Of a stretch of 64,000 nucleotides of DNA, positions 15,001 to 21,000 are shown one piece after another. Position 1 is the first letter of the stretch. Every line of letters starts with the position of its first letter. Source of the DNA: Plasmodiophora brassicae (taxonomy: Eukaryota); the NCBI GenBank assembly GCA_036867785.1, contig CP145409.1, positions 1,426,001-1,490,000 on the forward strand, read 5' to 3'. The position numbers are program-made.

Positions 15001-18000
15001 TACTCATCGGATTGCCTGAACCGGGTAAGGTTCCGGGCAAGAAGCTCTTTATGAAGTGGCGGGGCCTATATCAAATAACTGATAGCCACGAGAACTACAC
15101 CTACGAGGTGAGGAATATGTTCAATGAGACGGACACTCGAACCGTTCACGGGGACCGCGTTCGCCTCTATGAACATGGCAAAGTGAATGCCACTGAGGAA
15201 CTGAAGCGACAGATGGATTATGACAATGAGCGTTTCGCCATTGAAGTCTTCAAGGACTGCAGGCACAGTCCGGAGACAGGGGAATTGGAATTGTTGATCG
15301 GATGGAAGGGTTTCTCTGAAGCGGAGGATTCATGGGAGCCAATCTGCAGGTTGGCGATGGATGTACCGAAGCTGGTGAAGGCACATGCCGCCAGGATGAG
15401 GAAGGAGAAACATCACCTTGCTGATGAGGTTAAGGAGTTACTTAAGGCGGAAGGAGTCCAGTAGGCTAGTCATGCTTTTTTCCCGGATGCGCGCTGGGTT
15501 ATTTTAATGCCGACGGCCATGTGACGACAGAAGCCAAAACTGTGTTCTACGAAGATTGAGACTTAATTATGTTAATTAGACTATATTAAGGAGAAGACAT
15601 GATTAGGATACACCACCACTGAAGACACCTGCAAGGAGGAGCATTTCGTTGAAGGAGGGGAATGTGCCGGCTCCAAGCTATAAGACAAGAATAGCTGTGA
15701 TCCGGCTAGGCCGCCCTAAGAATGACGGACATGCACGGAGTGCGCACGGAGTCCGCACGGCGTCCGTGGGAGCTGCAGGTCGGGGACACAGACGATTATA
15801 CTACACGGCTGATATACCATCACCGTTGGGACGTCACAAGCCCGACACACGTCGAATTAAGATCGTCATCAATTACCAGGTCAACAATTCGATTTGTTGG
15901 AGACATGGCTTCTACAACATCGTCCGTGATGCTTAAAGGTGGCGACTTGTTCGCAACTCGACGAATCACATCGGCATCGACATCTCTGCTCAACAGTCAT
16001 GTAAGAGCCCCCAAACGGGAATGCGCCCGAAGAAGAGCATACATGCTGGCTATCTCGGCGATATCTTGACGAACATCGTGAATGGGCTTGTCGATTCGGG
16101 GACTGTGATCAGACGATGCCCTCAATGAGGCTCCCTGTCGACGACGACATCAACAATGGTCAATGCGAGGAAGTCCGTCCGGAGGTTGCGACTATGGAAT
16201 TGTTGAACGTGGCCGACGCGGAGACCCGACTCGATGTAATGTGTAACGTGACGCCCGAACTGTGACGCGTTGTCGTCCGCTGAACGCCCTAGCCGCTAGG
16301 GCGTTCCTACGGGCAGAATGACGCTAGGCCCTACCGTAAACTTCGATGCGCTGTGCCTAGCGCATCCTGTGCCCCCCTGTCCAAAAAAAGGCTTCGAACT
16401 TTTTTGCGACCACCGACTACGAGGGCCAGTCAGCTCGACATCATATCAGGCCCGAATTTCAAGGTCGCAACCACAGCATGGTCCCGATCCGACAGCTGAC
16501 CGGCGATGTCGTCCGTCCATGTTGAGATTGTAGGGATCGAGATCGGCAACCGTGGACGCTGCTGTCAAGAGCACACCGTGTGCGGGTCTGTCCTGGAACC
16601 AGACAGCATTGTCCGGTTGCGTATTGTTCAAATCATTAATGGTAAGTCATCCCTAATTCGTCGACGATTTAACGACAATGATATCCCCAGATGCGGGCAA
16701 CACCGAGACGGCAATTGCCGTTTATCGTGTGAGGAACGGTTCTGATCAATGTTTGGTGGGATTCCTGCCCCGTCATTACATTGCGAGAGCCAACCGATTC
16801 GACAACCGACTTGCAAGAGTTGTCGAATTGTACTCTCGCTCTGACAATGTGTACGACCGTCGACGGTCGCATCGCCATGGCGGCATGGCACGTTGTATCC
16901 TGCTGTAACGCCATCTATTGTTTATTCGGTATCTGTAAAGTAGGGAAAATCATGGCTACGCCATGACCTTCGGATCACATCAGGCGATAGCTCTTGCAAC
17001 GATCGGATTATCCACGATGCCACTTGAGGACGTGTTGGTGGATCCAACGGGTCACCGATGGGCTTTTCCAGTAACCAATGCTCCCATTGATCCCGGATTC
17101 GTGACTTAAATGATCGGTTGACACCCACGTCGATCGGCTGAACGAGTGCGGTGCAATGGCTGGGAACATGCTCCACCTGGACGCCAATACTGTTGATGCT
17201 CAACAGCACTGGTGCCATAACGTGGCATCGGAAAGAATCCAGAAGCAATACAGGACTTTGAGCCTCAACAGGCACACTCGCAATGTACGGTTGTAGACAC
17301 TGTTAAACTCTGTTAGTTCAATGATCGTGCCATACTGAAGGCGATACCTTCTTAACCCATTGTTGCATAGTAGCGCCATCCATCCAAGCGTGCGGCTGGC
17401 ACGCGTATTCGCTGCCAGGCGGATATTCCGGCAGCTCGCGTGTCGCGATGCGGCCCTGAGGCTGACCTTTGAAAATGATCATAGGCCGAAGAATCGAACC
17501 ACTGGCAGTAACGGCTACTGCTACAGTGACCCTGAGCGTCGACGACGATGTCTTGCGCATGTTGACATGCCTCGCGCCGACACGATCGATCGTCCGGTTT
17601 CGAGACATGTCAAAGAAGACTGCCGTCTCATCCATATTGATGATCAGCCTCTTGTCGAGGCTGGCAATACGCGGTACGATGGAAGCCATGAAGGTTCCCG
17701 CCAGACGCCGTTCTTGCTCTGGCCCGACAGACGAGGAGGGCGTGCATACACGCGTCGTTAGACGATGCCTTTTTAAGAAACGCCTTAGCGTCGACTCCTT
17801 GGCGTTAGAAGACTTTTCCTTAAGCCCCGAAAACATTTCACAAGCATACTGTTTGAGGCTATTTAACGATATTCCTAGACGAAGGTTCTATGAGTTCCAC
17901 TACAACGAAATGCGGGCGTAGTTGAAGGTAGTACCTATCCCTGCGTCCCGTCTATCAAAGATCCACCGAAGCAGATCGTCTTCTTCTTGCTCTGTGAACG

Positions 18001-21000
18001 TAGGCGCCCGACCACGAGAAATCGTTGTTGCATCGGGGCGCGATTGACTTAGGCGCGTCTCCAGTTTCTTCCACCGTCGGATTTGACTGGGTGCAACGCC
18101 ATTGGCATCGGCGAAGTTATGCAACGATGTACCTTGTACTGATGCGCGGCACCAGCACATCAAAATGGCCAGCTTGTCGGCGTTCGTTATGGACTGGCGG
18201 GAGTGCATCGCGGTCGATGCGAACGCCTGAGGCGGCAATGGTTTAAATGTTCCGCCCGGCTCGGAAGTCTGCAGCTCGCACCCCACCCAAAAAAACGCCG
18301 CATGTTCGGGCAAAAAATTAAACAAAACCTTACATCACTGCATAATTTTTTTGACATTGCTGGGTACAGCGCATCGAAGTTTACGGTAGCGTCATTCTGC
18401 CCGTGGGACGAATACCCATTGTCGTCCCGCGCAATCCTTCTATCAATCCACACCGAGCGCGGCTAATTGGCATACCTATTTTCCAGCAGATTAGCCACAA
18501 CCCTGATCGTGCCTCGAAGTCGAGATGACGTCAGCTCACGTTGCTTCGCCATACGACAAGGTGACGAGAGCCAGGACAACACTATTAATATTCCGACAAC
18601 GAGGTACCACCGTACCGGGCAGGCCTGCAGCGCCCCAGGTCGCCGGTCGTCGGGCAGGACCAACGCGGCGCCTTCATCGAGCGCATCACCAGGCGGGCGA
18701 CACCGCAGCCCGATCTCACACGCCACGACGAGTTGGTACTGGTGTCCACGTACCTGCAGGAGCGGGCGCACCGACAGCGATTGGGGACGGTTGCCTTCGG
18801 CGGGCACGTCCCCATTCGTACTCGTACGACACGCACTCAGGCGGACGTGCCAGCATGGGTCTGCGCCCTCTTCTGATCGACTCGATGTTAACCAGGCGAC
18901 AGTCCAGCAACAACACGGCCGGATCCGTCGCCGGACAACGCCTCAGGCGCACAATAACAGGAACAAGGACGTGCCCTGGGCTGTCCAACTGTTCGCACGA
19001 TCGACTGACCACAATACATACTACGGGGATACGAAACGAGGGGGAACGCACAGCCTCTCCAGAAATGGTGATCATTCGTGCTGAGTACTACGCCTTTCGT
19101 GAGACGATGCGATTACCGGTCCCAGTCAACGGCGCCCTCTTCAGCGGCACGCGCCGACTCGTGTTCCTGTGGCGCCGTCGCGACACAGCAAGGGACATTT
19201 GAAGGCCCACAGACTACGATGGACATGTCGTACTCGTTTATTGTTGGATAAAGGAGCTGGGCGTCAGCGTACCCGATCACCCCTCTTCCTGCTATACAGC
19301 GACAGGGACGGCTGTGACGACACGGCTGACGTGATCGCGGATGCGGTCGTCAACTTCGATGCGATACGTGGCGTGCTGCGTTCGGGTCGGTCGTGGCCCC
19401 GGCGGGTACAATGCCCGACCGCGGCGCCTGACGGCGCGCCTAATTTTGGGCGACCCTGGAGGGACGACTTGACGGTGCCGTTGCGCGCGCCACCCTAGCG
19501 TCGTCGGCGGCATGTCCAGTCGCAGTACAAGTCCAGGTGGCCTGTGTGGCACCGGCGTCTTCGACCGCCATGGCACCGACGGCCATCGACATCAGCTGGC
19601 GTCCCGGTGATGTCAGCGGGGATCTGCGGCGACAGATCAGTGGTCGGTAGCTGACCCGGACTGGCAGAGGCACGTACGGCTCGTCAGCGTGTACATAACG
19701 ACCTTCATCGTCGCCATGCATCCTTGTTCGACGTAGGTTGCACACGTGCCAAAGTGTGAACCGACACGGTGGTGGTAACGACGTCTGCCCATGCGGCCAG
19801 TCGCGTTGCCTGCTGAATCAGATGGCAGCGGTCAGCGGGTAGGGCGGTCGTGGCTAAGGCGGCACGTTCAGGGCGTAACTGATCGAAGTCAGCACCCGGA
19901 TGCAACCATGGCGGGACATACGGTTGAGAACATACCACGGCGACGAATGGATCCACTAGGTATTTAAACAGAAGCGGAAAATGGTGCTCGAGGGAAGGAA
20001 CTGGTGCAGCGAAACGGGCCCACGCAGGACGTAACTGGATGGTAGCCAGAAAACATCAGGGCAGGAGGACAACAACGTCAACGAGATGCGATCGCAGACC
20101 GACCCGGCGCAATGGGTATTTCGCAAAGTCTCCGCTGACCGACACTGGGCGTTTGGCGACGCCGAGAACGACCCGGGGCCCCGACCTCAACCATCGCGGG
20201 TGAACGAATAAGTTCAGGGCGTAACTGTTCGACAATTAACAAACGTCAGGGCAGGAGGGCAACCGGGGTCAACGGTGGCGGACGCACCCTGAAACCGTGC
20301 GACTAGACGATCGAGGCGGGGGACCCGGTCGCTTCCTGCCTTTCAACGACGCCTGCATTGCCTGACGTACAGCGTTGTAATGGGGCGTCTGGCGACGAAG
20401 AGCGGGGGGGATGGCACCCCCCGTCTTGCCGTTCAACGACGCCCCCGCTGACCGGCGCAAGGCGTCTGGCGGCGAGGAGAGCGATCCAGGTCCCGACCTC
20501 GACCATGACGAGACGAACGAACAAATTCAGGGCGGAGGTACCTATACGACAATTAATAGATGTCAGGGCACGAGGGCAACCAGAATCAACGGTGGCGGAC
20601 GCACCCTGAAACCGTGCGACTAGACGACCGAGGCGCGGGACCCGGTCGCTTCCTGCCGTTCAACGACGCCCGCATTGCCTGACGTACAGCGTTGTAATGG
20701 GGCGTCTGGCGACGAAGAGCGGAGGGACGGCACCCCCCCTCTTGCCGTTCAACGACGCCCCCGCTGACCGGCGCAAGGCGTCTGGCGACGAGGACAGCGA
20801 CTCGGGCCCGCGACCTCGACCATGGCGAGCGAACAATAGTTCAGGGCGGAGGTACCTATAAGGGAATTAATAGACGTCAGGGCACGAGGGCAACCGGGGT
20901 CAACGGTGGCGGACGCACCCTGAAACCGTGGGACTAGACGATCGAGGAGCGGGACCCGGTCGCTTCCTGCCGTTCAACGACGCCTGCAATGCCTGACGTA

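Follow-up and report, generated by a model that had tools for sequence, protein, structure and literature searches.

Tc1/mariner and pogo elements are textbook transposons that need only a transposase, and the described pogo elements, to our knowledge, encode the transposase and nothing else. Two-gene DNA transposons use DNA-binding partners, such as the Myb-like protein of PIF/Harbinger (nuclear import, end recognition). In excerpts from a survey of pogo-like diversity, extra open reading frames (ORFs) are mentioned only for the ciliate TBE/Tec elements (PMC7325037). Here we describe, in a 64,000-nt stretch of the Plasmodiophora brassicae genome (GenBank assembly GCA_036867785.1, contig CP145409.1, positions 1,426,001 to 1,490,000; hereafter the window, whose first letter is position 1), a pogo element at 16334–18386 (2053 bp) that carries a transposase gene on the minus strand and, convergent with it inside the same terminal inverted repeats (TIRs), a second conserved gene on the plus strand. 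This second gene sets the window lineage apart from pogo, Tigger and Fot1, which it otherwise resembles in its DDE_1 domain, DDD triad with 35-residue spacing, short TIRs, TA duplication, length of about 2 kb and, putatively, an N-terminal helix-turn-helix region (with sub-threshold Pfam scores). New here are the two-gene pogo lineage itself (Tc1/mariner superfamily, DDE_1, DD35D, cut-and-paste), which is previously undescribed, and a protein family that is HIRAN-like in its predicted fold, and on balance we lean towards reading the whole as a pogo lineage with a HIRAN-like, zinc-site cofactor of transposition.

The element opens with CCGTAAAC... at 16334 and closes with ...GTTTACGG at 18386, with TA on either side, these being the left (16332–16333) and right (18387–18388) copies of the target-site duplication by direct reading. 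An inverted-repeat search paired 16331–16361 with 18359–18389 (31 nt, 94% complementary), such that the left TIR, starting CCGTAAACTTCGATGCGCTGT, lies at 16334–16361 on the plus strand and the right TIR, which the TIR pattern also marks, at 18359–18386 on the minus strand; the TIR-core pattern occurs four times in the window against 0.1 expected. Contigs from public sequencing runs contain other insertions of the same element that diverge from this locus at 16332/16334, break points that fix the left boundary. The original prediction, made from the sequence alone, of a pogo (DDE_1) transposon with TIRs at this interval is confirmed, and the element is intact and probably still mobile.

The transposase coding region lies in three minus-strand frames, two of which match Pfam DDE_1, and removing pieces of 60 and 48 nt leaves one uninterrupted 392-aa ORF (ATG 18208–18206, stop 16922–16924). 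Exon 1 (17934–18208) holds the ATG and a putative helix-turn-helix region, with matches that are all sub-threshold (HTH_Tnp_1, 15 bits; HTH_29, 13 bits; HTH_23, 19 bits); the run contigs terminate near 18248. Intron 1 (17874–17933, 60 nt, GT..AG) corresponds to a joint 17873->17934 present in four of four runs, and intron 2 (17300–17347, 48 nt, GT..AG) to a joint 17299->17348 present in one of the four, in a 1601-nt contig of run X6. Between them, exon 2 (17348–17873) encodes a linker and the N-terminal part of DDE_1, with the first Asp in INMDET (27.4 bits), while exon 3 (16922–17299) encodes the C-terminal part with the second and third Asp and the stop codon (46.2 bits). Both DDE_1 (PF03184) scores exceed the cut-off of 22, and related full-length transposases reach 55–88 bits. 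The three aspartates (D177, D294, D330) are invariant in nine aligned transposases and sit in the window protein in INMDET, LLLDSF and QPIDVG, the last two of them being separated by 35 residues (DD35D); a spacing of about 30–36 residues at this point is typical of pogo.

Facing this transposase, the second or accessory gene comprises exon 1 (16506–16641, plus strand), which runs from Met1 to the first base of codon 46 and carries an IVG strand and a G-R-x-C-x2-H-x2-C-G knuckle, a 49-nt phase-1 intron read directly from the sequence (16642–16690, GTAAGT..CAG), and exon 2 (16691–16908, plus strand), which carries ETAIAVY, DxC-VGFLPR and a C-terminal RRRSHRxGG and ends in TAA at 16906–16908. Its coding sequence of 354 nt specifies 117 aa plus TAA and contains both motifs noted in advance, RGRCCQEHTVCG and AIAVY...VGFLPR; the predicted convergent 117-aa gene with 13 bp between the two stop codons (16909–16921, by direct reading) is borne out, with homologues and a family profile behind it. 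The spliced product aligns end to end with a hidden Markov model (HMM) of the family built from 38 members with the window exons excluded (158 bits, E 4e-51), in a match that crosses the splice junction. The position and phase of the intron (N, then G-AT = D) are common to the accessory gene and to metagenome loci L048 and L055, and intronless homologues run uninterrupted across the same position.

Several observations on transcripts count against this two-gene, spliced structure. The splice joints come from contigs of four public runs whose RNA nature is a guess, and the transposase introns could instead be segments absent from other DNA copies. Removal of the accessory intron was not seen in the run contigs that exactly match the window copy, which retain it. 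The sole skip nearby (16640->16695, 54 nt, in one of the four runs) has non-canonical ends and is out of frame; it occurs in a diverged copy that differs by 16 mismatches and an inserted nucleotide, and we read it as a deletion in a degenerate copy.

Evaluating the accessory protein as a family, an exhaustive phmmer search with exon 2 alone returned 369 representative proteins at E<=1e-3 (20 of these at E<=1e-10), and a profile search returned 259 relatives at E<=0.1, with no Pfam domain in any of the 120 of these 259 that were listed. Neither accessory exon of the window matches any Pfam family (E<=1). A typical member is about 120 aa long and aligns across both exons, and among the matches listed a source is named only for hypothetical proteins from Spongospora subterranea and from Fragilaria crotonensis. 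Nei-Gojobori ratios of nonsynonymous to synonymous substitution rates (dN/dS) were computed for those 42 of the 59 metagenome loci introduced below that are free of stop codons. Their median was 0.17 in the 351 pairs for which dS was finite, and they spanned 0.07–0.43 in the 40 closest pairs listed, values that mark a gene under purifying selection. Together, the 158-bit HMM match, the 369 homologues, the low dN/dS and the shared intron position indicate that the small gene is real, a genuine conserved gene of an unnamed family that has no Pfam model.

The most constant feature of this family is a Cys-His-Cys-Cys tetrad, with Cys24 (99%), His27 (98%), Cys30 (100%) and Cys70 (99%) conserved across 169 full-coverage members (numbering of member P0011), alongside Gly14, Arg22, Gly73 and Phe74, which are likewise 98–100% conserved. 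All four ligands are retained in the window protein, and the tetrad is presumably a zinc-binding site; a possible metal site had been proposed for this gene, and its 98–100% conservation in 169 proteins upholds the proposal.

To place the gene pair in a wider frame, we retrieved 59 loci from marine and freshwater metagenome contigs, many of which end shortly after the small gene, with the small protein only (10-sequence alignment), and then sought a transposase homologue. One was present in 30 of the 59, lying downstream and convergent, that is tail-to-tail as in the window, in 29 and on the same strand in the remaining one (L033). With at least 600 nt of downstream sequence the count was 28 of 41 loci, and with at least 1500 nt 12 of 19. 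A TIR search in 10 loci identified three complete elements of 2.3–2.5 kb (L001, L015, L018), each with both genes inside 28–32-nt CCGTA TIRs, a terminus that they share with the window element and with a second copy in the window (5865–6851); apart from an inverted repeat at L033 (below), no TIRs were found in the remaining loci of the 10, partly since contigs stop within the element. TA flanks both sides in four of five elements examined. The same layout recurs in deletion derivatives (window 5865–6851, L032 and L046) that have preserved their ends together with the 5' portion of each gene, and the gap between the two genes ranges from 125 to 621 nt in other elements.

Comparing pairwise distances between accessory proteins with those between transposases gave r 0.78 for 152 pairs drawn from 18 elements, a value that none of 2000 Mantel permutations reached; the correlation is inflated by shared ancestry yet is as co-inheritance predicts. 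In a tree of the small protein, whose base is unresolved, transposase-linked copies fall in most clades and the unlinked copies with long flanks form three small clades. These patterns show that the accessory gene and the transposase have been passed on as a pair in elements that are now widely diverged.

The pairing has exceptions. Among the 19 loci that extend 1.5 kb or more beyond the small gene, seven contain no transposase (L027, L029, L030, L040, L051, L055 and L056, three of them identical in the domain), and no TIRs were found around these seven, nor around L002, L005 and L023. At L045:345-1272 a family member adjoins a histone-H3-like ORF, and at L033, where the transposase is on the same strand, the only inverted repeat found surrounds the transposase alone. 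The seven loci and L045 indicate that the protein can exist outside elements, and the transposase-less members could be domesticated or orphaned copies. The outcome that was to refute the original prediction, homologues unlinked to transposases, did not come about: in 29 of the 59 loci, though not in all, they lie tail-to-tail with DDE_1 transposases.

Structure prediction with AlphaFold2 supplied two models of the accessory fold. Model 1, from a 40-sequence alignment with P0011 as first row (44–55% identical to the window exons), had a mean predicted local distance difference test (pLDDT) of 93.4 and a predicted template-modelling score (pTM) of 0.86, with strands at residues 9–13, 39–48, 54–64, 67–74, 90–96 and 115–120 and helices at 77–86 and 103–111. 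Model 2, of the L001 accessory protein, had pLDDT 88.1 and pTM 0.75; its strands and helices follow one another as in model 1, with one more helix at the C-terminus. A structural search of both models with VIA-align against 48,161 PDB chains ranked the same three entries highest: 3k2y_A (model 1, Z 6.9 over 96 aa at a root-mean-square deviation (rmsd) of 4.6 Å; model 2, Z 7.3 over 96 aa at 4.3 Å), the HLTF HIRAN domain 4xzg_A (Z 6.2, 90 aa, 4.6 Å; Z 6.5, 93 aa, 3.3 Å) and Kluyveromyces lactis Rad5 6l8o_A (Z 5.4, 79 aa, 4.5 Å; Z 5.5, 93 aa, 4.8 Å), with the Rad5 match spanning residues 175–286 for model 1 and 179–295 for model 2 and the next-ranked entry at Z 4.4 and 4.0, respectively. The first of these, whose entry title is lp_0118 only, we take to be a HIRAN protein, and a literature search linking 3K2Y and HIRAN found nothing. 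Re-scoring of Foldseek candidates likewise put 3k2y, 6kcs, 4xzg and 4s0n at Z 6.1–6.9 and the next entry at 3.3, and PF08797-bearing clusters accounted for 27 of 30 and 29 of 30 language-model neighbours in the Atlas.

These matches agree with what is described of HIRAN, which excerpts of the structural literature present as a barrel of six strands capped by two helices, whose cavity accommodates a dinucleotide of single-stranded DNA and has Y72 and Y93 of HLTF at its border (PMC4666394). The predicted accessory architecture has, as modelled, the same six strands and two capping helices, and the barrel gives its best structural matches over 79–96 residues of the HIRAN entries (PF08797; 4xzg, 4s0n, 6kcs, 6l8o and 3k2y). 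Being stand-alone and about 100–120 aa long, the protein also resembles the HIRAN proteins of bacteria and phages. The same excerpts note a weak resemblance of HIRAN to SmpB (PMC4666394), and SmpB is also present lower in our structural match lists. There is thus a good probability, as far as models go, that the accessory fold is HIRAN-like, as in HLTF and Rad5.

Set against this are the middling and negative results. All Z scores are below 8 and the rmsd values lie at 3.3–4.8 Å, a range that the tool itself rates middling, and Foldseek gave no PDB match at E<=0.001, with 3k2y at rank 9 (probability 0.72, template-modelling scores 0.42/0.50). The Atlas recognition value for the first query was 2203, under the 2300 mark. 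At the sequence level, Pfam PF08797 was matched by 0 of 40 members at E<=10 and, at E<=0.1, by none of 25 homologues. Searching PDB sequences with a family profile likewise produced no matches at E<=10, and a PHROGs search returned nothing named. The HIRAN cavity is lined by the stacking residues Y72 and Y93 of HLTF together with N90 and N91, and inspection of our alignment, at motif level, found no obvious aromatic counterparts of Y72 and Y93; since no equivalents are evident, 3'-end binding may not be retained in the accessory protein. The HIRAN-like label of the original prediction therefore holds for the predicted fold, HIRAN-related structures taking the first three places among 48,161 chains with either model, and fails for PF08797 membership and for Foldseek significance.

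A further departure from the HIRAN of HLTF and Rad5, besides the lack of a PF08797 match and the cavity tyrosines that are not evidently conserved, is the metal site. In the models the loop between strands 1 and 2 is rebuilt as a Cys-x2-His-x2-Cys knuckle, with the fourth Cys on strand 4, a combination that we do not know as a feature of HIRAN. We accordingly picture the family, from these models, as a probable distinct zinc-bearing branch of HIRAN-like proteins whose sequences PF08797 does not recognise. SNF2/RING fusions, as in HLTF and Rad5, were absent from the 150 matches listed of an all-length search, and no longer fused forms appeared in a profile search at E<=0.001, a weak search that missed known members of 423 and 425 aa.

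Some members do carry an extension. A putative N-terminal finger of RanBP2/NZF type (PF00641, Zn_ribbon_RanBP) is present in 4 of 10 extended ORFs (L015:363-1025, L020:335-994, L043:47-1009 with two fingers, and L049:339-923), and the candidates keep the full W-x-C-x2-C...C-x2-C pattern despite sub-threshold scores (17–22 bits against a Pfam cut-off of 27). One of these ORFs, that of L015, is the accessory gene of a complete, TIR-bounded element; the window protein itself is without this extension. Two side observations concern other members: the one at L056 adjoins reverse-transcriptase-like ORFs, and P0014, a 3909-aa protein on a 955-kb ENA contig, contains eight separate matches to exon 2 and probably reflects a faulty gene model that spans several element copies in tandem or in a cluster.

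What such a protein might do for a pogo element is suggested by the chemistry of the superfamily. Tc1/mariner transposition leaves transposon ends with a free 3'-OH, an empty donor site with short 3' overhangs, and target joints that contain gaps. Because these are structures that a HIRAN-type module reads, we propose that the accessory protein is an end- or junction-binding cofactor. As a nucleic-acid-binding cofactor of transposition, it would most likely hold an end or a junction of DNA, much as HIRAN binds a single strand at its 3'-OH end, the candidate substrates being the 3'-OH transposon ends or the gapped or overhanging donor and target DNA. Its contribution could be to stabilise or protect the ends, to guide how the vacated donor site is repaired or to influence the choice of target, and the RanBP2/NZF-type finger of some elements would fit recruitment to chromatin or repair sites. 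PIF/Harbinger offers an organisational analogy, being likewise a eukaryotic cut-and-paste system with a co-inherited second gene for a presumed DNA-binding cofactor, although it differs in transposase superfamily and accessory fold, and its partner's role is experimentally established whereas that in the window lineage is a proposed one. That we know of no other pogo or Tc1/mariner element that needs more than a transposase also speaks against such a cofactor.

The alternative that survives best, which we regard as possible but unlikely, keeps the accessory protein as a partner of the transposase and changes what it binds: it would be a sequence-specific or architectural factor for terminal or subterminal DNA, or for the transposase itself, with the HIRAN-like barrel as mere scaffold. 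Its constant position beside one TIR and its co-divergence with the transposase suit this account, as does the lack of evident HLTF end-binding residues, and the conserved basic residues (R22, R41, R77, R106) would equally suit duplex binding. The PIF/Harbinger parallel would apply here too, yet Pfam scans find no helix-turn-helix or Myb-type domain in the accessory family, and members exist without any transposase nearby. A complex prediction for the L001 transposase and the L001 accessory protein scored 0.00 with alignments not used, and weighs neither way.

Somewhat more doubtful is a bolder version of end binding, in which the accessory protein would act as a structure-specific sensor, responding to nascent 3' ends or to junctions that resemble forks, and would couple this pogo lineage to replication or post-replication repair, with the transposase-less members as host domestications. 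Integration would then be directed to forks or gapped DNA, or the excision break channelled into copy-restoring repair. Bacterial Tn7 has such a target selector in TnsE, for which the signals at replication forks are 3'-recessed ends and the sliding clamp, and if the sensor account were true the accessory protein would be a eukaryotic counterpart of TnsE made from a zinc-bearing HIRAN fold. The analogy is functional only, that of a transposon accessory protein that reads a replication-associated DNA end; the two proteins are unrelated in sequence and differ in size, host domain and transposase type.

Two other accounts strike us as improbable, and to the same degree. According to one, the accessory gene acts against the host as a regulator or anti-silencing factor, or works through convergent, overlapping transcription as antisense control. 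The 1601-nt contig of run X6 (16540–18248) has both transposase introns removed and runs antisense through the accessory gene to 16540, retaining the accessory intron; if this contig is RNA, the transposase and accessory transcripts overlap at their 3' ends, an overlap that the 13-bp stop spacing would in any case force. Against this account, the runs are guessed to be RNA, the gap of 125–621 nt elsewhere means that tight overlap is not conserved, and the dN/dS near 0.17 with an invariant metal tetrad shows that the protein itself, rather than transcription alone, is selected.

The other makes the gene a passenger: a pogo ancestor would have picked up, on a single occasion, a host gene with an unrelated cellular function, which has no role for the element. 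The transposase-less members, one of them beside a histone gene, are compatible with this, and since the tree base is unresolved the gene could have passed between host and element in either direction. In a mobile element a passenger of no use should decay, however, and this gene is intact with dN/dS near 0.17 in elements whose proteins differ by up to 61%; its position and orientation are constant in 29 loci, and linked members fill most clades of the tree whereas the unlinked ones make up three small clades. That there is no second gene at all, the 117-aa frame being a chance ORF or prediction artefact for which neither a spliced transcript of the window copy in the run contigs nor a Pfam family could be found, is refuted beyond reasonable doubt by the 158-bit HMM match, the hundreds of homologues, the purifying selection and the high-confidence folds.

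We thus retain an end- or junction-binding cofactor as the favoured account, with HIRAN-like models and a tail-to-tail transposase in 29 of 59 loci as the two findings, fold and linkage, on which the original prediction had staked itself. No link between HIRAN and pogo was found in the literature searched, most subscription journals and Repbase-type reports lying outside it, and a query combining 'HIRAN domain' and 'transposable elements' returned nothing relevant by title or abstract.

The target site of the window element has a structure of its own. The element sits midway in a pre-existing host palindrome with 22-nt arms (16305–16326 in the left flank, partner 18387–18408; 95% complementary), for which the flanks had a reverse-complement score of 19.5, a level that none of 500 shuffles attained (maximum 10.5). 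A palindromic target as a property of the family was considered and rejected, as such symmetry is found at one of five element flanks examined and is missing from the other four, which makes it locus-specific. Beside the left flank lies a second host palindrome of 25 nt (16282–16306).

The second element of the window (5865–6851) is diverged and internally deleted, and is bounded by TA and by TIRs starting CCGTATTTCTCGG..., with the TIR pattern at 5865 and 6851. It retains a homologue of accessory exon 1 at 6018–6158 on the plus strand (60% identity by tblastn, 55 bits to the family HMM) and, at 6618–6211 on the minus strand, transposase residues 1–137 (31% identity, E 2e-15). A direct repeat is common to its two flanks (5768–5810 and 6860–6900), which would fit insertion into another repeated sequence.

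The surrounding DNA is eukaryotic and transposon-dense, with a high GC content of 51–69% per 2 kb. Pfam scans of 86 window ORFs identified Ty3/gypsy pol genes (reverse transcriptase, RNase H, integrase, chromodomain) at 10437–15464, 44882–46003 and 60515–63598, the two-gene pogo element lying about 870 bp downstream of the first of these. An ORF with a hAT C-terminal dimerisation domain (46136–46567, minus strand, 58 bits) points to a hAT transposon remnant. DEAD and Helicase_C ORFs at 53506–55466 (minus strand) may be the helicase of a YR/RecQ element that had been named earlier for this window, and no tyrosine recombinase was found in the Pfam scans of the 86 ORFs (at least 140 aa, E<=1e-4 and 1e-5).

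For superfamilies regarded as self-sufficient, a second gene kept under purifying selection across deep divergence implies that something more is needed or advantageous in the hosts of these elements, which, judging by the two named members, are stramenopile- and rhizarian-type protists. From its predicted fold, the accessory protein would recognise ends or junctions in DNA. How eukaryotic cut-and-paste elements use replication and break repair to gain copies is poorly understood, and a small, well-folding two-component system would make the interface with replication and repair directly testable. The unnamed family itself, with hundreds of members, a predicted HIRAN-like barrel and a Cys-His-Cys-Cys site, would widen the known range of the HIRAN fold.

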